From the UHGV virus genome UHGV-0095987: DNA of 35,905 nucleotides; one strand, given 5' to 3'. Of the stretch, positions 34 through 32,642 are shown piece by piece (the first letter of the stretch is position 1; each line of letters begins with the position of its first letter). Source of the DNA: a virus. Under the pieces are notes generated by a model that was given only the letters and a program-made list of their open reading frames with translations, searched no databases and was not told the origin of the DNA. The position numbers were made by a program, and so were the translations under genes.

Positions 34-49
34 ATTCATTGCATGGGGA

Positions 50-775
50 TCACTTAGGGTATGGCTGAACCCTGAATAGTTTGGTATTTAGCCGCTTCCT
101 TGCTCGCTTGTTCAGGAATCTGATGTAGCGATACTGATTAAATTTGTGCACCACGGCACGCTCTTTATTAGCCCGTAAATACACGCCTCGTTGTCCACCG
201 CGTTTAATCGCGTTCATCGTTATCTCGTGATACCACTCACCATCCAGCTCGTAGAACGTGCTTTCATGGCTGCCAATAAAATCAAAATTTGACGCCTGAT
301 ACACAACGCCAGCACGTCCGCAGCGTTCGTCTGCAAAAGACTGAACCCACTCCACTGACGGATACAGTAACCTTATGGTTTTCAGTGCATAACTGATGGC
401 CCGTGATTCAGAGTTGCGGGGCATGTCGTCGTGTAGCCACATGCGGTTCAACTCCATATAGCCCCGGTTATCCGTTTCAAGCACGACACGACGACCTGAG
501 TTGGGGTTAAGGGCATATCCCCACTGGAGAACGCCAACCAGATCGCGTCCGCTGAATACTCCCAGGTGGAGGTAAGAGTTATTCACAAAACGGCGGGAAT
601 AGTGCTTTGTCTGAATAATTGTGCGGGCCAGCCAGCAGGATATGGTTTCAACGCGCAGCTCCTTTGAACCATAGCCAACAATCTGGCCTTCATACTCAAT
701 AACGCACGGTTTCGTCAGAATGCGTGATTTTTTCTCTTTTCCCACAATGTTTCTCCGTGGGATGCTCGCAGGCAT
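50..775 (-). CDS. mom: Mom DNA-modification protein (adenine modification, anti-restriction)
   Basis: 241-aa ORF at the right-end position after com, with ATG start; 5' end overlaps the com 3' end as in Mu. True start could be slightly internal. Confidence 0.85.
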
Positions 776-884
776 TCAGCATTATGATGTGACGTTTGCA
801 ACGCGGACACCTGATTTCAATGTGATCAAAGGAATCCGCCTTAAATAACAGTTTGTTGCAGTTTTTACAGCGAATTGATTTCAT
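696..884 (-). CDS. com: Com zinc-finger translational activator of mom
   Basis: 62-aa [14 protein letters not shown]... with CxxC...CxxC zinc-finger motifs; AGGAGG ribosome-binding site 6 nt upstream; overlaps mom start. Confidence 0.9.
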
Positions 885-958
885 CTCACCTCCTTTGCAT
901 CAATTCGCCACTATCTTAAAAAACATCATGGGTTGAGTGTGGTTATTGAGACATAATC
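885..958 (-). promoter_or_regulatory. Pmom late promoter with C-activator binding site
   Basis: Minus strand reads gattatgtctcaataaccacactcaacccatgatgttttttaagatagtgg upstream of the com RBS: T6 run followed by TAAGAT -10-like hexamer, no good -35. The same T-run/-10 architecture recurs upstream of lys and I. Confidence 0.7.
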
Positions 959-993
959 GATCTGTATTACCGATCGATTTGATTTATTCGATC
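959..993. promoter_or_regulatory. Cluster of three Dam GATC sites upstream of Pmom (methylation-sensitive OxyR control region)
   Basis: GATC at about 959-962, 972-975 and 990-993 within 35 bp, overlapping the gin stop codon. The position matches the known Dam-dependent mom regulatory region of Mu. Confidence 0.65.
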
Positions 994-1560
994 GTCGTTT
1001 TCTATATGCGTTCGTTTCGCGGGGTGTTTTTTATACAGAGTTGACAGGGCCACATCGTAGATCAATGCAACCTGCTTGCGGGGGATTCCTTGTGCTAATA
1101 AACGCCCGGCCTGCTCCCATTCCGCTTTGGTTAGTTTAGGTGGTCGCCCACCAATACGGCCTTTATTTCTGGCGGCAGCAAGTCCAGCCATCGTTCGCTC
1201 GATAATTAGTTCTCGTTCCATTTCAGCCAGGGCACCCATAACGTGGAAGAAAAAACGCCCCATTGGAGATGACGTATCAATACTGTCAGTAAGACTGCGA
1301 AAATTAATCCCTCGCTCTCGTAATTCCCCTACGAGAGAAATCAAATGTTTCATGCTTCGCCCGAGGCGATCCAGTTTCCAGACAACCAGTGTGTCACCTT
1401 TTTGAAGGCGCTTTAAAGCGCGTTTTAATCCCGGTCGGTCTGTCCTTGTTCCGCTTAATTTATCTTCAAATATTTGTTCACATCCTGCACAAACAAGAGC
1501 GTTTCGTTGCAGGTCTGTATTCTGGTCATTTGTTGATACCCTTACATAGCCAATCAGCAC
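967..1560 (-). CDS. gin: Gin serine invertase (G-segment DNA invertase)
   Basis: Protein ...LIGYVRVSTNDQNTDLQRNALVCAGCEQIFEDKLSGTRTDRPGLKRAL... is a serine recombinase with catalytic Ser in the YVRVST motif. ORF track extends to a TTG at 1587; a GTG at 1558-1560 preceded by AGGAG is the likelier start. Confidence 0.9.
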   Translation of the reverse strand: MLIGYVRVSTNDQNTDLQRNALVCAGCEQIFEDKLSGTRTDRPGLKRALKRLQKGDTLVVWKLDRLGRSMKHLISLVGELRERGINFRSLTDSIDTSSPMGRFFFHVMGALAEMERELIIERTMAGLAAARNKGRIGGRPPKLTKAEWEQAGRLLAQGIPRKQVALIYDVALSTLYKKHPAKRTHIENDDRINQIDR

Positions 1561-1614
1561 TCTGGATCTCCTGTTTAAAAGCGCCAATCATGCCATGCGT
1601 GCCAAAATCGACCA

Positions 1615-1655
1615 TTATCCAAAACCTCGGTTTGCAGGAAACGATAAATCAGGCT
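1615..1655. repeat. gix left inverted repeat (Gin recombination site)
   Basis: ttatccaaaacctcggtttgcaggaaacgataaatcaggct; reverse complement found at 4661-4701 with 3 mismatches over about 41 bp. Confidence 0.85.
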
Positions 1656-2576
1656 TCAGGCGCATTGCAGAAAAACCAGAACGGCGCAGATATTCCAAAC
1701 AAAGATAAATTTACGCAAACAATAGGTGCTTGCCGCTCTTTTCATGGTGCTATTAGCACAGGTGCAGGAAACTGGACGACGGCACAATTGATTGAATGGC
1801 TGGATTCTCAAGGGGCATTCAATCACCCATACTGGATGTGCAAATGTTCATGGTCATACGGCAATAATAAAATTATTACCGATACTGGCTGTGGAACTAT
1901 TCATCTTGCAGGTTGCGTTATTGAGGTTATGGGTAATAAAGGTGCCATGACCATCCGTGTAACAACACCAAGCACTTCCAGCGGTGGCGGAATCACTAAC
2001 GCTCAATTCACTTATATTAATCATGGTGATGCTTACGCTCCTGGCTGGCGACGAGACTACAACACGAAAAACCTGCAACCTGCATTTGCTTTAGGGCAGA
2101 CAGGAAACAGGGTTGCAAATGATAAAGCTGTTGGCTGGAACTGGAATAGCGGTGTTTATGATGCAGACCTAAAAGGCGCATCAACATTAATTCTTCATTT
2201 CAATATGAACGCGGGTAGCTGCCCGGCTGTACAATTACGCGTGAATTATAAGAACGGCGGTATTTATTATCGTTCAGCGCGAGATGGTTATGGATTTGAG
2301 GCTGACTGGTCAGAGTTTTATACCACAACCCGCAAACCCTCTGCGGGAGATGTTGGTGCATATACCAAAGCTGAATCGGATTCTCGCTATGTACGAGATA
2401 TTCGCCTGGGCACTCGTGTTGTTCAGACCATGCAAAAAGGCGTGATGTATGAGAAATCAGGTCATGTAATTACAGGGCTTGGCATTATTGGCTCTGTTGA
2501 TGGCGATGATCCGGCTGTATTCAGACCAATACAAAAATACATCAATGGCACATGGTATAACGTGGCGCAGGTGTAA
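1617..2576 (+). CDS. S': S' tail-fibre variable segment (silent in this G orientation; would fuse to the S constant part after inversion)
   Basis: ORF in frame through the gix repeat. Shares the IQNLGLQET...NGADIPNK junction motif and the C-terminal [12 protein letters not shown] motif with S; the central part differs. Confidence 0.75.
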   Translation: MQNLGLQETINQASGALQKNQNGADIPNKDKFTQTIGACRSFHGAISTGAGNWTTAQLIEWLDSQGAFNHPYWMCKCSWSYGNNKIITDTGCGTIHLAGCVIEVMGNKGAMTIRVTTPSTSSGGGITNAQFTYINHGDAYAPGWRRDYNTKNLQPAFALGQTGNRVANDKAVGWNWNSGVYDADLKGASTLILHFNMNAGSCPAVQLRVNYKNGGIYYRSARDGYGFEADWSEFYTTTRKPSAGDVGAYTKAESDSRYVRDIRLGTRVVQTMQKGVMYEKSGHVITGLGIIGSVDGDDPAVFRPIQKYINGTWYNVAQV

Positions 2577-2579
2577 CTT

Positions 2580-3113
2580 ATGCAGCATTTAAAAAACATT
2601 GTCGCAGGTAATCCAAAAACCGTTGAACAATATCAGCTAACAAAGAATTTTAATGTTATCTGGTTATGGTCTGAAGACGGAAAAAACTGGTATGAGGAAG
2701 TGAAAAACTTTCAGGAAGATACAATAAAGCTAGCTTACACAGCAGAGGGAGTTATTGTTGCTATTGATAAGGATGTATCGGCAATTAATCCAGAAGGTTT
2801 AAGCGTTGTTGAGTTGCCTGATATAACAGCCAATAGATGGGCTGATATTTCGGGTAACTGGATGTTCAAAGATGGCGCGGTGATAAAGCGAACTTATACC
2901 GAGGAGGAACAGAGGCAGCAGGCAGAGAATGAAAAGCAAAGCCTGTTGCAACTTGTCAGGGATAAAACCCAGCTATGGGACTCACAGCTACGGCTGGGTA
3001 TCATTTCCGACGAGAATAAACAAAAATTAACCGAGTGGATGCTCTATGCGCAGAAAGTCGAATCTACAGACACTTCCAGCTTGCCAGTAACGTTTCCCGA
3101 ACAACCAGAATGA
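2580..3113 (+). CDS. U': U' tail-fibre assembly protein (alternative partner of S')
   Basis: 177-aa ORF; first about 50 aa near-identical to U ([24 protein letters not shown]... vs [24 protein letters not shown]...). Confidence 0.8.
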
Positions 3114-3116
3114 GAG

Positions 3117-3143
3117 AAGGCCCGATATCGGGCCTTAATTTTT
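3117..3143. terminator. Bidirectional hairpin terminator between the convergent U' and U genes
   Basis: Perfect palindrome aaggcccgatatcgggcctt followed by aattttt, in the 28-bp gap between the two convergent stop codons. Confidence 0.6.
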
Positions 3144-3669
3144 ACTCAGGCTTTTGTGGCCATTCGGGCTTTGCCGTATCCACACGGCTGACCATAACAC
3201 TGTAGCGTTCCCATGCTTCCAGTCGGCTACGCTCCTCATCCGTCGCCATATTCAGCCTGACAGCGCGCTCCAGTGGCTGAATAACGCTTTCCGCTTCGGA
3301 AAGTAATGCGGCCTTTTGTGATTCGGCCTGTTGCTGCTGCTCGTCTGCCGTATAAATCCGTTTAACTACAGCTCCGTCCTTAAACATCCACTTACCGGAA
3401 TCATCGGCCCGACGATTGGCTGTTATATCGGGGACCTCAACGACGTTAAAACCTTCAGGGTTAAGCGTGGAGGCATCTTTAGTTATGGCAACAATAATAT
3501 TATGTTCATCGTAAACAATCTTTATTGTGTCTTCCTGAAAATTCTTTACCTCTTCATACCAGTTTTTTCCGTCTTCGGACCACAACCAGATAACGTCAAA
3601 ATTCTTTGTTAATTCGTACTGTTCCAGTGTTTTAGCGTTACCCGCTTTAATGTTCTTTAAGTGCATCAT
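3142..3669 (-). CDS. U: U tail-fibre assembly protein
   Basis: 175-aa ORF immediately downstream of S on the minus strand; N-terminal homology to U'. Confidence 0.85.
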
Positions 3670-3670
3670 A

Positions 3671-5197
3671 TTAAACGCTCGCTACATTATACCAGGTGCC
3701 ATTTATATACTTTTGAACTGGTCTGTAATAAACGCCAGCTATATTATCGGCAGAGTTGGAACCTGTATCCTGAACATTAATACCAGACAACACATGACCT
3801 GAAGGGCACTGGAAATTCCATGTTTGCCAGTTGTTCACTCCATAATATTGCTGTGAACCAAGTCGAACATCTTTCACATATCTGGAATCAAAATTGCCAT
3901 AGTTGCCGGGAATAACTTGCGAGCCGCAAAGCCAGTTCCCGTTATTATCCATGTACGCCTGACCATCGGTGCCATTGGCTGTCCTTGAGTTATTAATCAT
4001 GTAGATGCCAAATTGCTTGTTCCCCAGTCCACCTATCATGAACTTTCGGTCGGCGTGATTCTGGCGAAGCAACGCCTGAGCGCTATCAGTGTTAACTATA
4101 TTTTTCCCAAAGATAGCGTTGTTATCGCGCATCTGAATCCACATACCATTACTGCTGTTAATAGCAAAACGGTCTGAAAGTGTCTCCCCTGAAACATTAA
4201 GTCCACGCCCCATCGAAACAGCGCCAGTAGCGTTATTAATCCATAATGGCCTTAATCCGTTATAAGTCCCCATGTTGTCACCGGAGTTTGTCAACATGAA
4301 GTATGTATTTGAACCATCATTACGAATAAAGAATCCGTAATTACCATAAGCAATACGTAGGCCGTTTGCTGATTTTGATATGACTTCGCCATTTACAATG
4401 GCATTGACAAGAACATACAAAGCATCCCATTTAAGATTCATCAGGTCTTTTGTTGTGGTGCTTTGTTTGCTTCTCCATTTGAAATATTCATTGCCGTTGT
4501 CGCCTGTTTCAAACCACATGTATGAATCAGTATCGCTGTCGGCATCATTTTTAAAACCAATTTTTGCCCAGTCAGTATTTCGAATCCAGGCAAGAATTGA
4601 GTCGTTTTCAAAAGTAAGTCCGCCGGACAAGGTATCGCCTGTCTTTTGAACGGCATTACCAGCCTTGTTTACCGTTTCCTGTAAACCGAGGTTTTGGATA
4701 AACAGCGGCTTATTGGGAATATCTGCTCCGTTCCGGTCTTTTGCCAGACGGGCATTGGCATTATCCATTGCAATTTTCACCGCTTTTGCGGTGGCTGCCA
4801 GCGTTTCACTGGGGCTGTCAGTGGCACTGGTTAGCTGAACGAGTCCTTTCTTGTTCAGGCTGGCATCATTAATATCCAGATTTTCACGTGCTGTACGCTG
4901 TGCTGATGTCCCGGCAGTTTTAATTTCGCTGAGGTTATTTTTTATCAGCAGCGCATTCTTGTTCATGATGGCTTTAATGGACAGTGCAAGCTGGTTTAAT
5001 TTTGTTTTATCCGGTTGAATACCGGCTTCTTCCAGCGTGTTTAATAACTCCGCCTGCACAATATTAAACCAGTCCATGCCGGGCCATGTGATAACATTAT
5101 TCCCGTCACCTTCTGAAAACCAGCGAACGATAGCACTACGCTGGGCGGATACGGGCGGCATGACGGTTACGCCGCTGTCGTTATCAATATAAAACAT
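3671..5197 (-). CDS. S: S tail-fibre protein (constant part 4702-5197 outside G, variable part 3671-4701 inside G)
   Basis: 508-aa ORF spanning the right gix repeat; C-terminal motif [14 protein letters not shown] shared with S'. Confidence 0.85.
4661..4701. repeat. gix right inverted repeat
   Basis: Reverse complement of 1615-1655; core ttcctgtaaaccgaggttttggataa. Confidence 0.85.
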
Positions 5198-5739
5198 TAG
5201 TTATCTCCGTCATGGTAAACAAATTTATAAATCTGATGCGCGGGTTTATATTTCTCCAGTAAACACTCCAGCGCACCCGATTCATAAACACGTAACGGCG
5301 TCAGAACATTATCCAGCACCGTTGCGTTGCGATAATTTTTAATACCGTAAATATTGACCTGCGTAACCCACTGGCCTTCTGTGGAATCCGTCAGCCTGAC
5401 GGTAAAACCGTACTGCGCAGCCAGCCATTCATAAAAGCGCCGACTCAGATTGCCGGTCATACGCATTTTATTCGCGGCAGCCCGCTGGCGTTCGGACAGG
5501 GTGCCGTTTTCGCTTGTACAGTCCGGCAACCCCAGAAATGATTCCCACTCCCCCAGATACCAGCGGGATGTGGACGGGAAACGCTCCCGCAGCATTTGCC
5601 GCGCATCATCCGCCGCAGTGGCAATCACGTCACTGATGGCCTGCGCCAGCGCAGATAATTTGCTGTCGGGGCTTTTATTCCAGGCAAGCCCTGACGGCAG
5701 TAATTGCAGAAAGGCCGTCTGATAGGGTGTTACAGCCAT
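5197..5739 (-). CDS. R: Baseplate/tail protein (Mu gp48-like, P2 gpI-like), assigned by gene order
   Basis: 180-aa ORF between the baseplate J-like gene and the tail-fibre gene; start/stop overlaps with neighbours typical of a translationally coupled operon. Confidence 0.55.
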   Translation of the reverse strand: MAVTPYQTAFLQLLPSGLAWNKSPDSKLSALAQAISDVIATAADDARQMLRERFPSTSRWYLGEWESFLGLPDCTSENGTLSERQRAAANKMRMTGNLSRRFYEWLAAQYGFTVRLTDSTEGQWVTQVNIYGIKNYRNATVLDNVLTPLRVYESGALECLLEKYKPAHQIYKFVYHDGDN

Positions 5740-6812
5740 TCAATTGTCCCCGGTGTTAACAGTTCCGTATTCTCCGAACGCTGGATCTCTGTCGGGAAAC
5801 GCACTTCAAAATCATCCAGACCGGTAACACCTGCCACCGCACGGATAATACGGGAGGGGGCAAGTGCGCCGCCCGGCGTCACCTCATTAAAAAACATGGT
5901 ATTAATGGCGTGGGTAATAGCCTGTTTCAGTTCGGCTGTCTTCGGTGATATATAAATCCGTGGATTTACCGGCTTTGCCTTTGGCGCAAATACAGTGACA
6001 TTTACACCGTCAGGCTGTCCGACAATCAGACCGGTGATCGGGTCAGTATGACCGGCGATATAATCCGCCACGCGTTCCACGTCTGCCGGTTGTGGAAAAA
6101 TATTGCTCCGGTTATCCATAACAAACGTCACCCCGACTGTGCCACCGCCTTTCCATGTCGGAAAACACCAGGCACGGGTAACGCCGCTGACTTCACGTGC
6201 CCAGCGAACGTAATCAAACTGATTACCGCCGAACGGAGGGTACTGGACACGATATTCCAGCCGTGACAGCAGTTCCGCTGCACTCTCAATATCAGCTCCA
6301 CCGGAAAACCCTTTTACAGTGATGGCATCGGAAACAACACAGGCAACCGGGGTGATCAACGTTAAAAGGGTATTCTCACCGGTATTTCCTGCTTCACCGG
6401 CAGCCAGTGCGGTAACGGTAATTTCCGTCGTTCCTGCACGGTCAATCACAATGGCATCAGCCAGGCTGTAAACCACACCATCAGCACGCTGCCAGCGTGT
6501 ACCGGCAGGAATGGTGGTCGCTGCCGATGTGGTGACAGTCAGCGGGCCGCTGGCGGCTGTCGCCTGTTTGCGGCGCACGCCCCAGAACCGGCAGTGCTCC
6601 AGCAACTCATCTTCATCTGCTGTCGACGGGATAATCTGCCGTCCAACCCATGAAATATGCTCGTGACAACCGGCAGCAAGCCCTGCCTGGGCGTAAGCAA
6701 TGGCACTCAGCGTTTTTTCACGGGCCTGAGGCCAGCTACCCGGCAGGCGCTGTTCAATATTCTGTTCTGTACGGGCAATCAGCGATGATAATGTCGGTGG
6801 TGAATAAGCCAT
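5730..6812 (-). CDS. W: Baseplate wedge protein, P2 gpJ-like (Mu gp47-like)
   Basis: 360-aa ORF in the baseplate block; size and position as in Mu-like tails. Confidence 0.65.
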   Translation of the reverse strand: MAYSPPTLSSLIARTEQNIEQRLPGSWPQAREKTLSAIAYAQAGLAAGCHEHISWVGRQIIPSTADEDELLEHCRFWGVRRKQATAASGPLTVTTSAATTIPAGTRWQRADGVVYSLADAIVIDRAGTTEITVTALAAGEAGNTGENTLLTLITPVACVVSDAITVKGFSGGADIESAAELLSRLEYRVQYPPFGGNQFDYVRWAREVSGVTRAWCFPTWKGGGTVGVTFVMDNRSNIFPQPADVERVADYIAGHTDPITGLIVGQPDGVNVTVFAPKAKPVNPRIYISPKTAELKQAITHAINTMFFNEVTPGGALAPSRIIRAVAGVTGLDDFEVRFPTEIQRSENTELLTPGTIEWL

Positions 6813-8961: not shown

Positions 8962-10441
8962 TAATCACCTCAATACTGACACCACCGGGAACAAACAACG
9001 GGTTGCTGATACCGTTCCTGCGGGCCAGCCGTTGCCAGTTCCGGCTGTTTCCTGTGTAACGGTACAGAGCCACCATTGCAGGCATCGTCTCCGGCAGGCG
9101 GTGCGTTTCACTGCCCGCCAGTTGCAGCCCGCGTTTTTCCAGGTCGGCAACAACCAGCAGACGCAGTTGCGTAAGCTGAACGCTGTCTGTCGAAAAGCCC
9201 TGCTCAGATGCCGTCAGAATGACGGTATCCAGTGCAGCCCCCAGCATGGCGGCTGTTTTTCCGATATCGGACACACTTTCAAATACCGGGGGCGTGGCTG
9301 TACCACTGTCTGAAAAGGATACCTGTGAAAAGCCGCCGTCCGGGGTTATGGCAGTTAACTGTAACTGTCCCTGTGTGACGGTAGCAGATGTGCTGCTGGC
9401 CCCGCTGGCTGTGCCGGTTGTGGTGGACGGGGCATCCAGTACAGGTGCACGGGCGGCATTATCCATCCGGCGACTGAAATCCAGTGCCGCAGTCAGTGCT
9501 TGGCTGGCAGCTTCTGCCCGGTATGTCTGCGCCGCTGCCAGCATGACGTAGTTCAGTGTGGCAATATTTTTTTCTGCAACCGGACTGTTGTACGAGGTTG
9601 TGATTGTCCCCTGTCTGCCTGCGGTGGCGGCATGGCGACGTTCGAATCGCTGCGCCAGACGGTTCCATGTGGAAAATGCTGTCCGGGTATCGCATAACGA
9701 TGAAACGCCGGACAGCGCCCCCATCAGCGAGGAGGCCAGCATGGCAGGCTGGTTAATCAGGCTGGTCACAGAGCCTTTCATCGCAGAAAGCGATCCCATC
9801 AGACCGCTGACAGTCTGCGTAACCCCCAGATTGTCCACCGCATCACTGATATCATCGATGACACCGGTTACAGCTTCCATCACGGCGGTTGCCGCCGCAG
9901 TGCCATCTTTTACGGTCTGCCAGACAGAGGACAGCGTATCTCCCAGAGAACCGGTTACAGCAACGGCCTGTGCCGGTACGGCTGCACTGGTGTCTGTCTC
10001 TGCGTCCGGGGCAGTATCCTGCAACGACGGATAAACGGTAACGGCGAACGCGTAATAATTCAGTTCATCCGCTTTAGTGCGGCATTCCCATGAATCCACC
10101 ATGACGTCCACAGTGCCGAAATCAGGATGTACCAGCTCACCGCTACCCGGAGCATCAAGAGCATCCATCAGCGCACCCGCTTCATCTCTGGCTGTTTCTG
10201 CGTTGCTGTTCAGAATGCAGGCGCTGAATGTACGGGAGCGAAGCTTTTTCCCCAGGTCATTGACGCCGCCGGTATCACGTAACGGGTACTCGCGTTTAAC
10301 CAGGCGACGTCCGCCAGCCTGTTTTTGCTCCTCGATGACGAGAAACGGCACGTTACGGAACGTGCCTTTGCCGGTTGTTTTCTTACCACCGCTGATTTTA
10401 TCCCGGACAGCATTAACGGCATTTAAAGCATCTTCAAACAT
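8954..10441 (-). CDS. N: DNA circularisation / tail protein N (Mu gp43-like)
   Basis: 495-aa ORF directly downstream of the tape-measure gene. Confidence 0.65.
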
Positions 10442-10445
10442 GGTT

Positions 10446-12518
10446 TTACCAGCCTGTAATGTAGTTATCGCCCGCGTAAATATTCAGCCCCATACCATCC
10501 TCGGTGACGCGGGAACTGGTCAGACGTAACCCCTCGCCAAGTTCGACGCGCAGCGAGGCTTCCGCATTGACTTTTTGTTCCTGCGGTTCCTTATCCGTGG
10601 CCGTCCATTTCTGATACAGGTCGGTTACAAAACCGCCCAGATACTCCCCGGCGACACTGCCCAGCGTGGCACCGGCAACCGTACCCAGCGGTCCGGCAAG
10701 GCTGCCAACGGCACCGCCGAGCCATGCACCGGCTGTACTGCCAATTGCGCCTGCTTTTTCATGGGTTGACGCCTGCTCATCCATCAGGACGGGGGCAAGC
10801 TGGAGTGCCCCCATTACCGGGCCACCCAGACGTGACAACGCACGACCGGCACCTTTCCCCATCCAGCCCAGCGCCCCGGCACCTTTCGTCACAACCCGAC
10901 CGATCGCACTGCCTGAAAGTTTGCTTCCGATACCGGAAAACCACCCGCCAACAGCACGCCCGGCATCAGCCAGCTTTCCGACCGTTCCCGTAACCAGTTG
11001 CCCGGCAGCACTGCCTGCAAGCCTGCTCAGAAGACCGGATTTACCGGGTAAAGATAATGGTGCAGGCCGTGCCGTTACCGGTACGCCGGGTGGGGGTAAT
11101 GCCAGTACAGGGCGTGGTGCAGGTAATGCCAGCGGCTGTGGCCCGGACAGCAATAACGGCTGGCGGGGTAACAGCGGGGCCATTCTTCCGCCGCTCCGTC
11201 CGCGACGACCGCCGCCACTCCCGTAGCCACCAAATCCACGGGGCCAGTTGATGACAAACACACGCTGAATGCCGATACCCTGCAACAGCGTCTCAGACGT
11301 CATGGCATCCGGGACCGGCAGACCTGCCTGCCCACGTTTGCGGTTTCGCATCCAGCGCCACATACGACGCCCGGTTTTAAACGGATAACTGGCAACCTGC
11401 CATGAGGGTTTTGCCACGGCCCAGCCTGCTCTCAGGGCTTTATTGGCAAGCCAGACAGACACCAGAACAGCAGCCAGTTTTTTCAGGCTGACAATATTCT
11501 GGTCAACCCATGCCAGCGCATCTTTACCCGGTTTCAGCCAGCGCCATAATTCCTGCGCCGCGATTTTTACCGTTCTGAACGTGGTCAGAAATTTCTGACC
11601 AATGTTTTCTGCCAGTGCGTCAAGTTCCCCGGATTTATCCGCCATGTCGTGCCAGTTAAGCACCCGGCGCATCTCGTTCTTGATTTCTTCAAAGGGGCCG
11701 CTGTTTGCCACCTTTATGCGAAATTCAAGCAGGTTAGCTTCCATCTGGGCGAACATCCCGTCCCAGGAGTTCATCGCACTGGCCTGTGCACCTTTTGACT
11801 GTTCTGACAGCGTTCTGAATACCGTCAGAATGGATTTCATGCCCAGCTTGCCCTTTGTACCCAGATCACGGATTTTTTTAACGTCCGTTCCCGTTGCATC
11901 CGCCAGCGCCTGATAAACGTTGATACCGTAACCGGTCAGCAGGTTGGCATCCGCCGCTGTGATTTGCTGGCGGGCAAACATCTGTTTCAGTTGCAGTGAG
12001 GCACCCTGTGCAGTGGGTAAATCCCAGCCGTGCATGGCCCCCTGATCCTGCAACATGGTGATGAACTGTTTCGTCTGTTCATCCGTCATGCCGAAGCCTT
12101 TCGACGAACGGATCTCATCAAGAACACCACTCAGCCCCCACGTGGTGTCCTTCGCGTTCTGCTTCGCCCAGGCCATCATTGCCTGCGCTCTGGCCTTATC
12201 GCCGTGATACAGCGAGTTCATGGCGATAATCTGCTGTTCACGTTGAGCTGCTGCGCTGATAAACAGTTTATTGGCGGTGTAACCCACCCCGGCAACACCC
12301 AGCGCCCCGGCTGACAGCATTCGGAATGTACGGGTTGAGAGAGAACCCATTCTGTCGATGGCACCAGACACGCGCACCACTTCCATACGCAGGGCACGCA
12401 GGGAACTTTGCCCACTACGGGACAGGGCGTTTATCTGGTTCGAATACTGGCGGGAACGCCGGGAAAGATTGCCATTAAGGTCAATAATGACTGACGCTTT
12501 TAAGCGTTTCCCGGTCAT
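10446..12518 (-). CDS. Y: Tail tape-measure protein (Mu gp42-like)
   Basis: 690-aa ORF between the tail chaperone and N; long alpha-helical N-terminal part, then Pro/Ala-rich linker and Gly-rich hydrophobic repeats. ATG at 12516-12518 preceded by AGGAAA. Confidence 0.8.
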
Positions 12519-23757: not shown

Positions 23758-24348
23758 TCATGCCTTACCCAGCAGCACATCACGGATACGCTGCTCCAGC
23801 TCTTCGCTGATGCCATCCTGCCCGCGCAGTTCTTCACTCACGGCGTTTGCCGCTTCTTCTGCGAATGCCTGGCGGATTTCTTTCTCGCGCCGATGGCTGG
23901 ACATTGCCGTGGATTCCAGACGCTGTGCCGCCAGCATGGCATTTTTCAGCAGGTCAATATCCACGTCAGATTCCGGGTTTTCGATTTGCCGCATCATGGC
24001 CTTAAAAAGCTGGCTGCGGGCCATTTCCAGAATCAGCTTTGTGGTTTCTCCCATTGGCTTGTCGCCAAGTTCTGCGGTCAGTGCTGACGTCATTTCACGC
24101 ATCTGTCGCAGGTTATGGCCTACTTGCTCGACGTTCGTCGCGTAACGGTTCAGACCGGAACGGGAGAGTTTCATCTCATCCGGCAGGCCAGCGTCTTCAA
24201 TCAGTGCGTTAATTTCTTCCAGAATGCGGGCCTGTGGGATCGCCTTATCACGCAGCATTTCATGCAGCGTTTTACGTACGTTTTCCGGCAGTAAATCCAC
24301 TTTTGAAGCCCGGCCCCGTGTTTTCCTGTCCATCACGCCTCCTGTCAT
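23758..24348 (-). CDS. D: DNA-binding protein, putative terminase small subunit (Mu gp27-like)
   Basis: 196-aa charged helical ORF directly upstream of the large terminase. Confidence 0.6.
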   Translation of the reverse strand: MTGGVMDRKTRGRASKVDLLPENVRKTLHEMLRDKAIPQARILEEINALIEDAGLPDEMKLSRSGLNRYATNVEQVGHNLRQMREMTSALTAELGDKPMGETTKLILEMARSQLFKAMMRQIENPESDVDIDLLKNAMLAAQRLESTAMSSHRREKEIRQAFAEEAANAVSEELRGQDGISEELEQRIRDVLLGKA

Positions 24349-24635
24349 GCACGGGGACGAGGACGCTTGACACCGGCAACGCGGGCACGACCTTCTGCCA
24401 CATCCTGACCTCGGGAGGTCAGCGTTACGACATAAAAGCCGCGCAGGTTTTCCACGGTGACCAGTTGCTGCTCTGCCAGCCAGTCAATCTGGCCGCGAAC
24501 CACATCGCGGGAAACGTTGTGTCCGTATGCATCCAGACAGTCCTGAAGGATGGATTCGTTTGCTTCGTTATTGCAGTCCATCAGGGAACGCAGGATGACC
24601 AGACGACGGTCTTCGGTCAGAATATCGTTAATCAT
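24345..24635 (-). CDS. Hypothetical protein (Mu gp26-like)
   Basis: 96-aa ORF with ATGA overlaps to both neighbours. Confidence 0.45.
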   Translation of the reverse strand: MINDILTEDRRLVILRSLMDCNNEANESILQDCLDAYGHNVSRDVVRGQIDWLAEQQLVTVENLRGFYVVTLTSRGQDVAEGRARVAGVKRPRPRA

Positions 24636-24949
24636 GAATTACTCCGGTTTACTGCGTTTTCAAGCAGCAGCTCCAGTTGATGGGAAAATGACTGCACCCG
24701 CTGGGACAGCACCCGGATATCGCCGGACAGCTCTGCAATTCGCAGGCGCATTTCGTGTACATCTTCTGTGCCAGGGATGCTGGCGTAGCGGGTTTCCATT
24801 TCGGTCATCCGGTTTTCAAGACGCTCCACACGCTCAGTGCTGGCAAAACTACGACGCATTGCCCAGACGGCCCCACCGGCCACAACAGGCAACAGGTAAG
24901 GCCATAACGCTAAAACTGAAATCAAATCCATTATTCTGCTCCACGGCAC
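24632..24949 (-). CDS. Membrane-anchored coiled-coil protein, candidate releasin for the SAR endolysin (Mu gp25-like)
   Basis: 105 aa; N-terminal transmembrane segment (DLISVLALWPYLLPVVAGGAVWAM) followed by a helical, charged region; lies in the lysis cassette. Confidence 0.55.
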   Translation of the reverse strand: MPWSRIMDLISVLALWPYLLPVVAGGAVWAMRRSFASTERVERLENRMTEMETRYASIPGTEDVHEMRLRIAELSGDIRVLSQRVQSFSHQLELLLENAVNRSNS

Positions 24950-25125
24950 CAGTGGCAGTAGTTCGTCATCGGCTGCTGTCTCAGCACATCAGGCCGCAGC
25001 TCACGACCGCAACCGGCACACAATACAGGCGGGTCATACGCCGCCGGGCGGGGAATATCACGGGTATCCCCCTGCCAGAGTTCAGCGAGCAGCAGCGCCA
25101 CCGCCCGGTTCTGGTCTTCGTTCAT
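24931..25125 (-). CDS. Small zinc-ribbon protein (Mu gp24-like)
   Basis: 64 aa with CAGCG...CHWC (two CxxC pairs); overlaps neighbouring genes. Confidence 0.4.
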   Translation of the reverse strand: MNEDQNRAVALLLAELWQGDTRDIPRPAAYDPPVLCAGCGRELRPDVLRQQPMTNYCHWCRGAE

Positions 25126-25423
25126 AAATTTCTTTCCTTCGGGTCTCCTGTTCCCGGACTGATGCCTTGTCGCGGTTGCACTGCCCGAGCGCCATCAACA
25201 GGTCAGCATTCCAGAGAAGGGATGCTCCCCACGTCAGGGGCTGTGGCATGGGCGGAACGGGCGTTGCTTCCGTCAGTTCTGCATCAGTTTCGGGCAGGAT
25301 CACCACCGATGGCACGGGTGCGTTTTTCGAGTTCCCGCAACCTGTCAGCAGCAACGGCAGGCACAGGACGAGTGCTGCAATTGTCACCGGTAATGGCGGT
25401 TGTAATTTTTTGTTTTGCATCAT
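25082..25423 (-). CDS. Outer-membrane spanin (o-spanin) lipoprotein
   Basis: Internal start MMQNKKLQPPLPVTIAALVLCLPLLLTGCGN: signal peptide with lipobox LTGC, Pro-rich mature part; begins inside the i-spanin gene in another frame. Confidence 0.65.
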   Translation of the reverse strand: MMQNKKLQPPLPVTIAALVLCLPLLLTGCGNSKNAPVPSVVILPETDAELTEATPVPPMPQPLTWGASLLWNADLLMALGQCNRDKASVREQETRRKEIYERRPEPGGGAAAR

Positions 25424-25670
25424 GATGTTCTGTCTCGTCTGCCAGCCGCGCGGCACGATTTGCGGCACGGATAGCGGAAAATACCTGCATCGTCTGTTCC
25501 TGACCGTGTAACAACCATTCAGCCGTGTTGCGGGCCTGTTGCTCCGTCTGTAATTCACGGCGCAGCGTCTGGTTATCGTGGCGGGTGCTGTCCAGCCTGT
25601 GCCACAACACCCCGGACAGAACGGCGGCAAACACGGCTGCCAGCAGTAAACTTTTACTGGCGAAGGTCAT
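25284..25670 (-). CDS. Inner-membrane spanin (i-spanin)
   Basis: 128 aa; N-terminal transmembrane helix (SLLLAAVFAAVLSGVLW) then coiled-coil-like periplasmic domain; directly after the endolysin gene. Confidence 0.7.
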   Translation of the reverse strand: MTFASKSLLLAAVFAAVLSGVLWHRLDSTRHDNQTLRRELQTEQQARNTAEWLLHGQEQTMQVFSAIRAANRAARLADETEHHDAKQKITTAITGDNCSTRPVPAVAADRLRELEKRTRAIGGDPARN

Positions 25671-26172
25671 CCGCCCCCCTGATATTCCAGATAGCTATTT
25701 CCACTTCGCGACGGTTCATCAGTCCTTTCCATTTATGGCCTGCGGCAAACACCCAGCGGGCCATCTGGTCACGCGCTCCGGCGTAATCACCGGCATTGAG
25801 TTTTTTCAGCAGCGTTGATTTACTGAATGCGGTAACACCGGTGTTGAAAATAAACGTTGCCAGCGCCGTTTTCTGATATGGCGTCAGCGGCACCCTGACA
25901 AGACGATCGATTGCCGCATAAACCGGTTTTAAATCACTGTCGAGAAGAGCCATACACTCCGCATGGCTGTAACGGCGCATTTCGATATCCGGCCCGGTAT
26001 GTCCCACACAGACCGTAAGCACACCGGCAATATCGCGGTAAGGCATATAAGCGATATTTTCCAGATGGATCAGAGACTGACGGGTCATTTCCTGATAACC
26101 ACCCACACCGCCACCGGCAATCGTTGCCGCCAGCAGTGCGGCTTTCAGTTTTTTTGGTATCCCCGCCATCAT
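25654..26172 (-). CDS. lys: Endolysin, GH24 lysozyme with N-terminal SAR (signal-anchor-release) domain
   Basis: 172 aa; catalytic E-x8-D-x5-T triad (ENIAYMPYRDIAGVLT); Gly/Ala-rich weakly hydrophobic N-terminus (KLKAALLAATIAGGGVGG) typical of SAR endolysins. Confidence 0.85.
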   Translation of the reverse strand: MMAGIPKKLKAALLAATIAGGGVGGYQEMTRQSLIHLENIAYMPYRDIAGVLTVCVGHTGPDIEMRRYSHAECMALLDSDLKPVYAAIDRLVRVPLTPYQKTALATFIFNTGVTAFSKSTLLKKLNAGDYAGARDQMARWVFAAGHKWKGLMNRREVEIAIWNIRGADDLRQ

Positions 26173-26263
26173 GCTTCCCTGAAAAAATGCTCTGATGGCA
26201 GTCTAAAAAATCAGATGGCAGGTGCGGGATTATGGTGACAGGAAATAACCGGCAGGATGCCGG
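26173..26263 (-). promoter_or_regulatory. C-Plys region: terminator of the middle transcript followed by the C-dependent Plys late promoter
   Basis: Hairpin aaataaccggca-gga-tgccggttattt right at the C stop; then ctgattttttagactgcc (T6 run plus TAGACT -10-like) about 25 nt upstream of the lys ATG. Confidence 0.65.
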
Positions 26264-26686
26264 TTATTTCTGGCTTTCAGGTGAGAACAGATCAGGCTGA
26301 TGACGTCGTGTATGCAGCTTTCTCTGGCGGGCAATAATCTGGTAGATCTGCGGCTGGGACAGGCGATACTGGCGACGCAGTTCTTCCATGTTACGACCAT
26401 TGAACTGGCAGTAAAGCAAATCGTCGCGTAACGCGGTCAGGATCGTATCGCCGCAGGGGATGTAAAACTGCCGCCCGCCCAGAAAACAGGACAGGGCAAC
26501 GGCCTGTTTACGGGCAAGCTCACGGGGATTGCTGACGTTCTGGCGTTTCAGTTCGTTTTCCAGAACATCAATCAGATCAACCACCGAACGGGGCCAGCGT
26601 GATTCCAGTTCCGGGGCCGGGATGTTATCAATATGTCCGATTAACTGGCGAATTGCCGGATCGTGTTCAAATAAATCATGCTGCAT
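26264..26686 (-). CDS. C: C, late-gene transcriptional activator (Mor/C family)
   Basis: 140 aa; paralogous to Mor in this window (shared ...YIP.G.....L.RD..I...FNGRN..EL...Y.....Y.....R...); sits immediately upstream of lys. Confidence 0.85.
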   Translation of the reverse strand: MQHDLFEHDPAIRQLIGHIDNIPAPELESRWPRSVVDLIDVLENELKRQNVSNPRELARKQAVALSCFLGGRQFYIPCGDTILTALRDDLLYCQFNGRNMEELRRQYRLSQPQIYQIIARQRKLHTRRHQPDLFSPESQK

Positions 26687-26698
26687 ATTTTCCCCCGG

Positions 26699-26818
26699 TT
26701 AACAGACAGAAAGATACACCACGGCACTGATGGTTATCAGAACCACAAGGGCAATCACTTTTATCGCACTAATCAGCGTGGACGGCCCGAAACATTCATC
26801 ACTGAATTTTCTGTACAT
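26699..26818 (-). CDS. Small membrane protein (39 aa, Mu gp20-like)
   Basis: Found by hand translation (MYRKFSDECFGPSTLISAIKVIALVVLITISAVVYLSVC): single C-terminal transmembrane helix, AAAGGGG RBS; below the ORF-track size cutoff. Coordinates approximate to within 1 nt. Confidence 0.4.
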   Translation of the reverse strand: MYRKFSDECFGPSTLISAIKVIALVVLITISAVVYLSVC

Positions 26819-26827
26819 GGTGCCCCT

Positions 26828-27190
26828 TTACCCGAACAGACGAGCGCGAAAACGAAAGGAGAGCCAGAACGTCAGCAATCCGGCCAGCGCCCAGATGACA
26901 TGCTCAGGACCCGTTTTCAGTTGAGACGTTGCCATCACGGCTAATCCCAGCCCGGACAGACTCCCCAGCCAGGTCAGAGGCCAGACGAACCGGGCAAAAT
27001 GTTCAGGCACCCGGCAGCTCATTATCAGCGCATCCAGACAATCAGCGGCAACACATAAAGCAACACTGAAAACCGAGGCACAGCAAAACATCAGCGCGCG
27101 CCAGCCACAAAACAGACTTATCCACAATAACAGCGCCAGTAATACCACCGATAAAAAATCAGGCCACTGACGAGCAGAACGCTCAGACAT
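26828..27190 (-). CDS. Polytopic membrane protein (Mu gp19-like)
   Basis: Internal ATG (MSERSARQWPDF...) preceded by GGGAGAAA; 3-4 predicted transmembrane helices. Confidence 0.5.
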   Translation of the reverse strand: MSERSARQWPDFLSVVLLALLLWISLFCGWRALMFCCASVFSVALCVAADCLDALIMSCRVPEHFARFVWPLTWLGSLSGLGLAVMATSQLKTGPEHVIWALAGLLTFWLSFRFRARLFG

Positions 27191-27401
27191 AATGTTTCTC
27201 CCTGTAAAGCAGGCAATGATGAAGAATTTCCGGCATATCAACTGACTGCCAGCCTTTCATGTAATAACTGCCGTGGGTGCCATCATGACCGGTATAGTCG
27301 CGGGGCGCAGGCCGTGGCCCACCGGCGACACGGTGCAAAACCTCCTGACGCAGCCGCTCACGTCTGCCAAGATAAAAGGATGCATTCCAGCCTTTACCCA
27401 T
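27183..27401 (-). CDS. Hypothetical protein, first gene of the middle operon (Mu gp18-like)
   Basis: 72-aa ORF starting about 45 nt downstream of the early terminator. Confidence 0.4.
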   Translation of the reverse strand: MGKGWNASFYLGRRERLRQEVLHRVAGGPRPAPRDYTGHDGTHGSYYMKGWQSVDMPEILHHCLLYREKHYV

Positions 27402-27448
27402 GATGATTTCCCCCGGTACGGTTATTCATCACAGGATATTGAGGACGT
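27402..27448 (-). promoter_or_regulatory. Probable Mor-dependent middle promoter Pm region
   Basis: Non-coding stretch between the early terminator and the first middle ORF, about 1.15 kb upstream of the C stop, consistent with the Mu middle transcript; exact -10 not resolved. Confidence 0.45.
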
Positions 27449-27470
27449 AAAAAAAGCCGGATTAACCGGC
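27449..27470 (-). terminator. Rho-independent terminator of the early operon (t9.2-like)
   Basis: Minus strand GCCGG-TTAAT-CCGGC followed by TTTTTTT, 9 nt after the mor stop codon. Confidence 0.8.
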
Positions 27471-27478
27471 TTTACTGT

Positions 27479-27868
27479 TTACAGAAGTGAGGGCTGGTAC
27501 TGGCGGTATTTCAGCCGTCGCATCCGGCGAATGGCCTTGTAAACCGTATTGAAAGTGACACCATAACGGGTGGTCAGTTCGCTGACGTTGCGACCGTTAA
27601 AATCATTCCAGATACGCAAATCCCGAATCAGCGAGTCCAGAACCTGACCGCGTGGAATGTAGACCTGACCGCCGCCCAGATGCTTACAGATAGCCACAAC
27701 AATCTCCAGTGAATGGGCAGGATCAACACCCAGCCGGGACAATTCCCCGCGCAGTAAATCGTTCAGCTCCGCCAGCAGTGCCGGAAAGCGTGACGTATCC
27801 TCTGCGGGATTGTCAAGATGTGCCAGGATGGTGTCATCCTGCAAATCACCAAATAAATCTTCCGTCAT
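27479..27868 (-). CDS. mor: Mor, middle-operon transcriptional activator
   Basis: 129 aa MTEDLFGDLQDD...; paralogue of C; last early gene before the terminator; overlaps the gemA stop. Confidence 0.9.
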   Translation of the reverse strand: MTEDLFGDLQDDTILAHLDNPAEDTSRFPALLAELNDLLRGELSRLGVDPAHSLEIVVAICKHLGGGQVYIPRGQVLDSLIRDLRIWNDFNGRNVSELTTRYGVTFNTVYKAIRRMRRLKYRQYQPSLL

Positions 27869-28752: not shown

Positions 28753-28993
28753 CAATATCCTGGTCTGATAACCCCAGCCTGCGGCGGATGTACTCCTCGC
28801 GGGCTGTTTCATTTTGCAGTGCCACTACTGTTTCCAGACGATTCATTTCGCGGTTGATAATGTCACGGACTTCTCTGGCGGTGAGATTATGCTTAATACC
28901 ATATTCAACGATAGCGCGAACACGTTCCAGCATCCCTTTTTCAGCCATGACGTTATCAATATTAAGGGGAGTAAATTTATCTTCATTGTTCAT
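28691..28993 (-). CDS. Early accessory protein, function unknown
   Basis: 100-aa ORF with ATGA overlap to the upstream gene; charged and helical. Confidence 0.5.
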   Translation of the reverse strand: MNNEDKFTPLNIDNVMAEKGMLERVRAIVEYGIKHNLTAREVRDIINREMNRLETVVALQNETAREEYIRRRLGLSDQDIVTDAHVFEAFEIRQHLGLTN

Positions 28994-29313
28994 TTTGCGG
29001 CCCTCAGAATAAATTCAGGATAAAATTTCAGACTCATTTGCCGTAACACATCCAGTGCAGCAACGGCTGCTGATTTATCGTTGCCATCAGCAATAGCGCG
29101 GAGATTTTCAATAATCCAGTGAGGACTCAGTGACTCAGCAATAATGCCAAACCGGTACGCCATGACCTCATCAATAGCTTTTTCATGAGACGTCTCATAT
29201 ACAAAATTCACAAAGTCATGCACTTCTTTTTTCGGCAAACCACCGGCAATCAGCAGGGCGGCAAGCTCTTCTGATTTTGAAAATACACCATTATTCATAT
29301 CACTCACCTTCAC
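28990..29313 (-). CDS. Early accessory protein, function unknown
   Basis: 107-aa ORF in the tightly packed early block. Confidence 0.5.
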   Translation of the reverse strand: MKVSDMNNGVFSKSEELAALLIAGGLPKKEVHDFVNFVYETSHEKAIDEVMAYRFGIIAESLSPHWIIENLRAIADGNDKSAAVAALDVLRQMSLKFYPEFILRAAK

Positions 29314-31891: not shown

Positions 31892-31911
31892 TGTCAGCGC
31901 TCCTTTGCGAA

Positions 31912-32181
31912 TTAATGTCTGGCTGTATTCGGGTTATAGCTGAATAATTTCCCCTCAGCTTCCAGCCCAAGCTCCCTGGCTGATTTCAACAACTCCTCGG
32001 TCGCTTTTTTAATGATTTCAGGAGCCATGCTCTTGATGATGCCTGCCATTACGTCATGTGGCCCGGTCTGGTCCTCAGGTGAGGATTCTTCCAGTCGCAC
32101 ATTCATATTTACGGCAAAACCTCCATTTTCCTGAAACTCAATATTTTCTGTATTGTTAAGTTCAAAGATTACTTTCGCCAT
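31912..32181 (-). CDS. Early accessory protein, function unknown
   Basis: Start chosen at MAKVIFELNN, 7 nt after AGGT; the ORF track extends to 32325 but that would overlap the upstream ORF by about 130 nt. Confidence 0.45.
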   Translation of the reverse strand: MAKVIFELNNTENIEFQENGGFAVNMNVRLEESSPEDQTGPHDVMAGIIKSMAPEIIKKATEELLKSARELGLEAEGKLFSYNPNTARH

Positions 32182-32194
32182 TTTCATTACCTGC

Positions 32195-32407
32195 TTATTG
32201 ATTAACGGGTGTTGCATTTGTGATTTTGTTAAGTTCACAAAACACATCTTCTGCGTGATGATGGTTGCCGACATGAACGACCAGCCTGTGACCATCAATA
32301 AACTCAAAAGCAATACCGCCCTCAACAGTCGTTTCCATTACACTGACATTATCAAGGTTGATTAACCTACTGATTCCCAGATTATCGTGAATATTTATCA
32401 CCATCAT
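32195..32407 (-). CDS. Early accessory protein, function unknown
   Basis: 70-aa ORF directly after the kil-position gene. Confidence 0.4.
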   Translation of the reverse strand: MMVINIHDNLGISRLINLDNVSVMETTVEGGIAFEFIDGHRLVVHVGNHHHAEDVFCELNKITNATPVNQ

Positions 32408-32414
32408 TTAAATG

Positions 32415-32642
32415 CTATCTCCAGATAATCTGGCAACCATTAAGACGGGCCGTCCATACAGAACGGGCCACCCCGGACTTATGCTCCATAATTCTGACCG
32501 CGTTTTTTACCAGTTCCACCGGTGGGTAAGTGATTTCAAGAATCGGACGCGCCACGCCGAGATATGATTCATTTACATGACTCCCGCGCGCCTGTAACCA
32601 GTTCTGCGCATCCGTTGCCATTTTTATATTTCGGGCCATCAT
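32415..32642 (-). CDS. kil: Kil-like host-killing protein (first gene after B)
   Basis: 75-aa ORF 15 nt downstream of B, the position and size of Mu kil. Confidence 0.55.

Follow-up and report, generated by a model that had tools for sequence, protein, structure and literature searches.

Lysis of phage Mu has been described as a process without a holin, in which the SAR endolysin is released by gp25 (Chamblee et al. 2022, mBio 13:e00813-22; PMC9239132). Mu gp22 is exported in a Sec-dependent manner, tethered to the membrane in an inactive form and activated upon release, and its residues K6 and K7 make it dependent on gp25 (PMC9239132). Deletion of Mu gene 25 postponed lysis from ~40 min to ~3 h, and gp22 and gp25 alone lysed cells ~50 min after induction. 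As models for the action of gp25, which caused no lethality after DNP, Chamblee et al. listed a protease, a charge-neutralising chaperone, and a channel (PMC9239132). The phage 21 S68/R21 and P1 Lyz systems also employ SAR-type endolysins with Sec export and activation on membrane release, features that the locus described here would share. Pinholin systems differ from it in that the window lacks a pinholin, and in Mu depolarisation delays lysis and a non-holin protein drives release.

Here, we compare with the Mu system the middle operon and lysis region of UHGV virus genome UHGV-0095987, of which the window, i.e., the whole stretch of DNA analysed, comprises 35,905 nucleotides. Reversed in orientation, the window constitutes a Muvirus genome that is colinear in its entirety with Mu from 36651 to 1049. 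Between positions 24300 and 27500, DNA identity to Mu and D108 amounts to 98.8-98.9% without indels (38 substitutions in 3.2 kb relative to Mu), and the ORFs correspond one-to-one to the Mu genes for gp22, gp23, gp23.1, gp24, gp25, C, gp20, and gp19. The gene order is the same as in Mu, as are the promoters and terminators by position. Pfam matches in the region comprised Phage_lysozyme, LysC, DUF2730, and, twice, Mor. All elements of the lysis region lie on the minus strand, and those described in a preceding sequence-only reading of this DNA are located at, or a few bases off, the positions given there:

27416..27486, minus strand: Pm, the Mor-activated middle promoter, positioned by carrying over the AF083977 feature (Mu 9163-9233) through the indel-free alignment.
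27183..27401, minus strand: gp18, 72 aa, soluble, first middle-operon gene here (Pfam Phage_Mu_gp18; PHROG 2121).
26828..27190, minus strand: gp19, 120 aa, four TMDs (N-in/C-in), non-essential middle gene (hydropathy, AlphaFold, Mu annotation).
26699..26818, minus strand: gp20, 39 aa, with one TMD at the C-terminus (N-in/C-out), middle gene, non-essential (38/39 residues shared with Mu gp20).
26264..26686, minus strand: C, late-gene transcription activator of the Mor family (Pfam Mor, E 9e-34).
26180..26266, minus strand: terminator following C (26243-26266; Mu 10383-10406) and late promoter Plys, which depends on C (26180-26246; Mu 10403-10469), both carried over from AF083977.
25654..26169, minus strand: gp22, SAR endolysin, GH24-type lysozyme, 171 aa (Pfam Phage_lysozyme, PF00959, E 1e-37).
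25284..25670, minus strand: gp23, i-spanin with an N-terminal TMD (residues 4-22, KD 1.93; i-spanin in AF083977).
25082..25423, minus strand: gp23.1, o-spanin lipoprotein with lipobox LTGC (Cys29) (Pfam LysC; Mu_55 annotation).
24931..25125, minus strand: gp24, 64 aa, containing the motif CxxC...CxxC (sequence; PHROG 3260, of unknown function).
24632..24931, minus strand: gp25, releasin (DUF2730), with an N-out/C-in TMD and a cytoplasmic helical hairpin (amino-acid identity to Mu gp25; Pfam).

This region comprises the middle operon and the lysis cassette of a phage Mu relative and very probably works as in Mu, without a holin. The transfer of the Mu experiments to the window is based on the 98.8% DNA identity and on identical or near-identical proteins, and the lysis roles assigned here would be carried over from experiments that were all done on Mu. 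None of the differences from Mu, namely, N17S in gp20, V15A and M158I in gp22, and several changes in the spanins, affects a residue reported to be functionally important. The sequence-only reading correctly recognised the endolysin as a SAR GH24 enzyme, the spanins as overlapping, one helical protein as membrane-anchored, and two middle-operon membrane proteins upstream of C, and its statement that a canonical holin is lacking agrees with the conclusion drawn from experiments on Mu (PMC9239132). Scanning the whole window revealed no additional credible TMD-containing gene. One membrane protein candidate (31912-32325) was rejected, since its hydrophobic segment is situated within a TTG-extended N-terminus overlapping the upstream ORF and is thus an artefact of the longest-ORF rule.

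gp22 contains the catalytic triad E-x8-D-x5-T (E37-x8-D46-x5-T52), and its two substitutions among 171 residues leave K6, K7, E37, D46, and T52 unchanged. The N-terminus, MAGIPKKLKAALLAATIAGGGVGGY, is weakly hydrophobic and rich in Gly and Ala, with a charge-free segment at residues 10-25, AALLAATIAGGGVGGY, downstream of K6, K7, and K9 in a short basic tail. Its highest Kyte-Doolittle mean over a 19-residue window was 0.97, which is under TMD thresholds; this hydropathy is typical of a SAR domain and not of a stable TMD. Export, tethering, and activation by release are probably shared by gp22 of the window with its Mu counterpart.

The product of the fourth gene after gene 22, gp25, is identical in amino-acid sequence to Mu gp25 and matched PF10805 (DUF2730) with an E-value of 2.5e-13 and 50.4 bits, compared to a cutoff of 24.9. 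Its start is GTG 24949 in the ORF list and ATG 24931 in the Mu annotation. A TMD at residues 3-24 is followed by R26-R27, and AlphaFold predicted a TM helix and a helical hairpin (pLDDT 79). From the identity to Mu gp25, we infer that gp25 here would act as a helper for timely gp22 release. The sequence-only reading had spotted this membrane-anchored coiled-coil protein but left its role unweighed; it corresponds to gp25, the actual regulator, as judged by the ~40-min to ~3-h shift upon deletion in Mu.

gp23 differs from its Mu counterpart in four amino acids. The LysC match of the Pro-rich gp23.1 had an E-value of 7.6e-15 and 55 bits (cutoff, 27), and its gene overlaps that of gp23 out of frame and additionally that of gp24. 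With an i-spanin TMD and a lipobox-containing o-spanin encoded out of frame, gp23 and gp23.1 have the characteristics of an overlapped two-component spanin. gp24 is not mentioned in PMC9239132. Relatives encode a zf-dskA_traR protein at the same position; BLASTP detected no similarity between the two, and their equation was rejected.

The middle promoter Pm overlaps a terminator-like hairpin (27473-27453) situated after mor. gp18, whose homologues contain PF26867, differs from Mu gp18 in one amino acid and C from Mu C in two, and the stretch comprising the terminator and Plys carries two substitutions relative to Mu, at 26189 and 26215. If these elements act as in Mu, Mor would activate Pm, yielding a middle transcript for gp18, gp19, gp20, and C, and C would activate Plys, yielding a late transcript for gp22, gp23/gp23.1, gp24, and gp25. 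Sec would export gp22, whose Gly-rich SAR helix would tether it to the inner membrane in an inactive state, with Lys6/Lys7 of the short cytoplasmic tail keeping it tethered, and gp25, bitopic with N-out/C-in topology and an acidic helical cytoplasmic domain, would promote its release. Freed gp22 would refold and degrade murein, and the gp23/gp23.1 spanin would then disrupt the outer membrane. Lysis timing would thus lie in the Mor-C-Plys transcription cascade, the accumulation of gp22, and gp25-dependent release, with no holin involved.

The two membrane proteins encoded upstream of C had drawn attention as possible lysis timers in the sequence-only reading. Hydropathy, and AlphaFold for gp19, indicate four hydrophobic helices in gp19 and one in gp20. 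gp19 is identical in amino-acid sequence to Mu gp19; the AlphaFold model, based on a four-sequence alignment, displays the four helices at a pLDDT of 58.6 but was too poor for a fold search. A word-indexed search of 5.8 billion proteins returned six clusters of gp19 relatives, all at least 67% identical, and HMMER, run in full against 1.84 billion representatives, yielded one further credible relative (P0010, 41% identical); two other HMMER matches were large membrane proteins and were discarded as spurious. gp19 is under purifying selection (dN/dS 0.29), and one allele of gene 19 has a dS five-fold above that of its flanks. gp20, whose sole difference from Mu gp20 is N17S, has a strong TMD (KD 2.77), and a Shine-Dalgarno-like GGGG precedes its ATG. 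It matched PHROG 19823 with an E-value of 8e-30 and corresponds to Mu gene 20 (AAF01097.1) in GenBank AF083977. This 39-aa ORF is no chance occurrence, being annotated, matched by a PHROG, and present in intact form at each of the 11 Mu-like loci examined. That the ORF track had missed it reflected only a length cutoff, and the gene was already annotated in Mu. The predicted RNA fold of 26660-26840 was not unusual (z -1.05) and lent no support to translational coupling of gp20 and C. We found no literature on Mu gp19 or gp20 later than 2022.

Gene 19 is precisely absent from 5 of the 11 Mu-like loci, i.e., SfMu, Yersinia phage vB_YpM_5, and three E. coli prophages, and about half of 41 E. coli genomes with the operon lack it. 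Like the window, SfMu and vB_YpM_5 possess the genes for gp20, C, gp22, gp23, and gp25, but gene 19 is deleted. Loci without it include plaque-forming phages, vB_YpM_5 being catalogued as an isolated phage, and encode lysis proteins that closely resemble their counterparts in the window, with gp25 of vB_YpM_5 identical. The gp20 of SfMu has a GTG start and an overlap with a lengthened gp18, whereas vB_YpM_5 has kept the ATG start and carries a GH108 muramidase gene ahead of gp18. Gene 19 is present in D108 (98.9% identical) and in Mu-like E. coli prophages (e.g., of 22KM0354 and E. coli W) that are 99.3-99.8% identical over the middle operon, and these show no relevant difference from the window. 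One version of gp20 is only ~45% identical but retains the N-terminal motif and the TMD. RefSeq (PGAP) annotation of the aforementioned E. coli prophages omits gp20 and often gp23.1. From this pattern of presence and absence, gene 19 is apparently dispensable and being lost within the genus. Conservation of gp20 in all examined loci and purifying selection on gp19 imply that both have some function.

According to Chamblee et al. (PMC9239132), Samanta et al. (2021) called gp19 and gp20 a holin-antiholin pair. Such a pair, or a pinholin pair, would time lysis via depolarisation and release of the SAR endolysin. Both proteins are small, have at least one TMD, as expected for holins, and are encoded less than 1 kb from the endolysin gene; moreover, pinholins usually partner SAR endolysins (PMC9239132), and distant Mu-like prophages have a 4-TMD protein at the corresponding place within a lysis cassette. 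However, holins are also expected to be expressed late with the endolysin, whereas gp19 and gp20 are encoded in the Pm operon as middle genes, and C, the predicted terminator, and Plys stand between genes 19/20 and gene 22. DNP triggering of Mu gp19, gp20, or both left viability unimpaired, unlike that of lambda S105 and phage 21 S68, which was lethal; the whole 18-25 construct was likewise non-lethal after DNP, and DNP delays Mu lysis rather than advancing it (PMC9239132). The same study found Mu to be devoid of a holin and gp22 and gp25 to be enough for lysis. Inactivation of genes 19 and 20 had no significant effect on lysis in the laboratory (Mathee and Howe 1993, as cited in PMC9239132), so that unchanged timing upon deletion, the outcome named in the sequence-only reading as speaking against its proposal, is on record in Mu for proteins identical (gp19) or identical in 38/39 residues (gp20) to those of the window. 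The naturally gene-19-less SfMu and vB_YpM_5 also argue against a holin pair, as does the lack of a holin family match for gp19 and gp20 in Pfam, PHROGs, and NCBIfam. We regard timing of lysis by gp19 and gp20 as largely refuted and extremely improbable; to judge from their Mu counterparts, they are accessory membrane proteins, non-essential and encoded in the middle operon, and act neither as holin nor as antiholin. The laboratory lysis curves are compatible with a small or conditional effect of gp19 or gp20.

A different role may be sought in the lysis cassettes of distant relatives. In Mu-like prophages of Klebsiella, Enterobacter, and Pluralibacter, GH108 comes first, followed in order by gp18, a protein with four TMDs, one resembling a GTA holin, a zinc-finger protein, and DUF2730. 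The gp18 homologues (~65% identical) lie directly after a GH108+PG_binding_3 gene, encoding a soluble muramidase, and directly before the 4-TMD protein in all six loci, and four Muvirus loci have this same GH108 gene ahead of gp18. gp19 and/or gp20 might then modulate lysis without triggering it, with a small or condition-dependent effect, gp18-gp19 representing the front of an older holin-dependent GH108 cassette; examples of such modulation are tuning of SAR-domain retention or releasin activity and service to the soluble GH108 muramidase of some relatives. Retention of gp20 even where gene 19 is deleted is consistent with this. Yet sequence homology of gp19 to the Klebsiella-type 4-TMD proteins was not detectable (hhalign E 0.49), the membrane protein following the 4-TMD protein matched GTA_holin_3TM only weakly, below the Pfam cutoff, GH108 occurs both with and without gene 19 and is absent from the window, and the laboratory lysis phenotype, as cited in PMC9239132, was not significant. 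We consider a modulator role very unlikely, and descent of gp18-gp19, perhaps with gp20, as the surviving front of an older holin-dependent cassette around a soluble GH108 muramidase unlikely. In the latter scenario, a block made up of gp20, C, Plys, gp22, and the spanins would have divided the cassette in Mu, most lineages would then have lost GH108, and gene 19 would now be in the process of being lost. It is quite possible, though short of probable, that gp19 and gp20 are unrelated to lysis and serve, prior to late gene expression, in superinfection exclusion, host membrane interference, or counter-defence, for example. Expression in the middle phase, the narrow distribution of gp19, its presence/absence polymorphism and high-dS allele, typical of accessory phage genes, and the lack of a lysis phenotype cited in PMC9239132 point in this direction, whereas the muramidase that accompanies gp18 and a 4-TMD gene in relatives points to the cell envelope or lysis, and Pfam, PHROGs, and NCBIfam provide no specific function (PHROGs 4975 and 19823, matched by gp19 and gp20, are unknown-function families). 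A role outside lysis concerns only gp19 and gp20 themselves and is compatible with Mu-type, holin-less lysis as the best explanation for the locus.

The lysis-region finding itself adds little, because it is already in print that Mu has no holin, what each gene of the cassette is, and that gp19/gp20 were proposed as holins and rejected as such by experiment (PMC9239132). Our comparative data are of modest value for a question left open by the Mu authors, i.e., the origin of the holin-less system. Relevant comparisons are the frequent loss of gene 19, the invariable retention of gp20, and the association in relatives of gp18 and a 4-TMD gene with a GH108 muramidase. If gp18-gp19 indeed descended from a GH108 cassette, the holin-less state of Mu would be recent and derived, and the 4-TMD protein would still be a holin or antiholin in relatives and in Mu may keep a small lysis-modulating effect. 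The comparisons also indicate a set of sister phages amenable to testing.

Across its full length, the lysis region of the window (24300-27500) is 98.9% identical to Escherichia phage D108 and 98.8% identical to phage Mu (AF083977), from which it differs by 38 substitutions and no indels. For the middle operon, E. coli prophages give the closest matches (99.3 to 99.8% identity). Mu positions 36651 down to 1049 are colinear with the whole window, which thus shows a Muvirus genome from the opposite strand. Where the window departs structurally from Mu, it does so outside the lysis region. The early region carries about 290 bp not present in Mu (28996-29289), holding most of a 107-aa ORF (28990-29313), and has the Mu gp6/gp7 region exchanged for a different segment of about 510 bp (31906-32416). 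At the right end (1-3733), on the tail-fibre/G-segment/mom side, identity to Mu falls to 88%.

All ORFs described in the sequence-only reading are present on the minus strand, and the following genes are relevant here:

24632-24931, minus strand: gp25, one N-terminal transmembrane domain (TMD) followed by RR, DUF2730 match above cutoff
24931-25125, minus strand: gp24, 64 aa, CxxC...CxxC with zinc-ribbon-like spacing
25082-25423, minus strand: gp23.1, out-of-frame spanin gene, lipobox LTGC, Pfam LysC match
25284-25670, minus strand: gp23, spanin with N-terminal TMD
25654-26169, minus strand: gp22, endolysin, Pfam Phage_lysozyme match (E 1e-37), E37-x8-D46-x5-T52
26699-26818, minus strand: gp20, 39 aa, one strong TMD reaching the C-terminus
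26828-27190, minus strand: gp19, four hydrophobic helices

The proposed endolysin with a GH24 triad and a SAR-type N-terminus was borne out, the latter being a Gly/Ala-rich, weakly hydrophobic segment following MAGIPKK, with a top Kyte-Doolittle mean of 0.97 (19-residue window), as expected of a SAR domain. Likewise, the overlapping spanin genes and the polytopic protein were recovered, and the membrane-anchored coiled-coil protein corresponds to gp25, whose model (pLDDT 79) has a transmembrane helix and a helical hairpin. The absence of a canonical holin also held, as a scan of all ORFs of at least 30 aa found no further credible membrane proteins in the window, and holin tests in Mu were negative (PMC9239132). 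An apparent membrane protein at 31912-32325 was rejected as an artefact of a TTG-extended ORF. The gene encoding gp24 lies between the spanin and releasin (gp25) genes, with gp23.1 overlapping its 5' end. This protein is not mentioned in the Mu lysis paper (PMC9239132) and has no detectable similarity to the zf-dskA_traR protein found at the same position in relatives.

Chamblee et al. 2022 (mBio, PMC9239132) reported only four coding sequences with TMDs in Mu, all in the vicinity of gene 22: genes 19, 20, 23, and 25. Samanta et al. 2021 proposed gp19 and gp20 as a holin-antiholin pair, and the sequence-only reading regarded both as candidates for setting lysis timing. The published experiments (PMC9239132) argue against this role: cells induced for gp19, gp20, the two together, gp25, or the entire 18-25 block stayed viable upon addition of DNP, a treatment that was lethal with lambda S105 and phage 21 S68 in the same test, and gp22 together with gp25 alone sufficed for lysis at about 50 min. 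Thus, gp19 and gp20 do not set lysis timing. DNP delayed Mu lysis rather than advancing it, and induced lysogens with a gene 25 deletion continued to grow until about 3 h, compared to wild-type lysis at about 40 min; in this mutant, chloroform released active gp22 (PMC9239132). It is Lys6 and Lys7 of gp22 that make this enzyme dependent on gp25, and the models discussed for gp25 action are a protease, a charge-neutralising chaperone, and a transient channel (PMC9239132). The regulator of lysis timing is gp25, which the sequence-only reading had listed without recognising its role.

Transfer of this mechanism to the window relies on the near-identity of its proteins and regulatory elements to those of Mu. 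The amino acid sequences of gp25 and gp19 are the same in both, gp20 differs by N17S, C differs in two C-terminal residues, and gp22 carries V15A and M158I but retains K6, K7, the six-Gly stretch, and the catalytic triad. The elements mapped by position from Mu are as follows:

26180-26246: Plys
26243-26266: terminator after C
27416-27486: Pm

The terminator and Plys together contain two substitutions relative to Mu. We infer from this sequence conservation that the Mu lysis mechanism would apply to the window.

The 39-aa single-helix ORF, previously found by hand below the ORF-track cutoff, is a real gene with a TMD, but not a new one: it is Mu gene 20 (AAF01097.1), annotated in the current AF083977 record as an N-in/C-out "transmembrane domain-containing protein", and it constitutes PHROG 19823. 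Each of the 11 Mu-like loci examined has an intact copy, one of them with an altered C-terminus, and in the version of L006, a divergent Mu-like prophage, the MYR+FS.EC motif and the TMD have persisted at about 45% identity. For the two E. coli Mu-like prophages with gene 19 that were examined (L003 and L004), the PGAP RefSeq annotation leaves out gp20 as well as the o-spanin gp23.1, so automated tracks give too few membrane proteins for the lysis cassette.

Gene 19 is a narrow-range gene. Among 5.8 billion proteins, its homologs form six clusters, every one from enterobacterial Mu-like elements, and an exhaustive HMMER scan added one relative with 41% identity. SfMu, Yersinia phage vB_YpM_5, and three E. 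coli prophages (L002, L009, L010, L011, and L012) lack precisely this gene; the gp25 of vB_YpM_5, which is listed as an isolated phage, is the same as in the window. The full-length form is present in 20 of 41 complete E. coli genomes with the operon, and most others have a form shorter by about 370 bp. Gene 19 is thus a presence/absence polymorphism within Muvirus, and its absence from Mu-like phages and prophages agrees with its being dispensable for lysis. Every gene-19-less locus examined has kept gp20, which in four of the five starts with GTG and overlaps a gp18 extended by four residues. Purifying selection acts on gene 19 where it is retained (dN/dS 0.29, window 26828-27190 versus 6001-6363 of L005, a metagenome-derived Mu-like contig). 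The dS of the L005 allele (0.27) is about five-fold that of the flanking genes (about 0.05), which suggests allele exchange at this locus.

A GH108+PG_binding_3 muramidase gene (186 aa), absent from the window, lies directly ahead of gp18 in four Muvirus loci (E. coli elppa5, E. coli FDAARGOS_1059, vB_YpM_5, and L006/L007), with the following positions:

L003, 6795-7355, minus strand: GH108 gene
L011, 2923-3483, minus strand: GH108 gene
L012, 5223-5783, minus strand: GH108 gene
L006, 5237-5797, plus strand: GH108 gene

It is the first gene of the middle operon, its product lacks an N-terminal TMD, and it provides these genomes with a second muralytic enzyme besides gp22. L006/L007 also have diverged gp19 and gp20 homologs and a 142-aa lysozyme homolog (L006 7018-7446, plus strand; L007 4365-4793), 44% identical to gp22. 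This lysozyme homolog has a truncated C-terminus, a LAAC signal resembling a lipobox, and Thr at the position of the catalytic Glu37. Spanin genes are lacking there, and DUF2730 directly follows the lysozyme homolog. The lysis cassette there may have decayed or been rewired.

Homologs of gp18 with about 65% identity were found in six distant Mu-like prophages of Klebsiella, Pluralibacter, and Enterobacter (L013-L018). All six share the order Mor, unknown gene, GH108, gp18, 4-TMD protein, 200-aa membrane protein, zf-dskA_traR, DUF2730, gp26-like gene, gp27, and terminase, with one or two further small ORFs intervening at the gp27/terminase end in some loci; the contiguous GH108-to-DUF2730 cassette spans about 3400-5750 in each. 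C, a GH24 lysozyme, and gp20 were not found in the Mor-to-terminase stretch of these loci. GTA_holin_3TM matches the 200-aa protein below threshold (E about 0.006). The start of the 4-TMD protein (127-135 aa) overlaps the gp18 stop, as does that of gene 19. Profile comparison did not detect homology of the two (hhalign E 0.49), so their link is positional and architectural only. In these relatives, gp18 and the 4-TMD protein thus look like parts of a lysis cassette, which weakly suggests that Mu gp18-gp19 might be a remnant of an older one; it revives no timing role for gp19 in the window phage. Holin-less lysis by a Mu-type cassette was already known (PMC9239132), and the comparative data for genes 19 and 20 are what our analysis adds to it.
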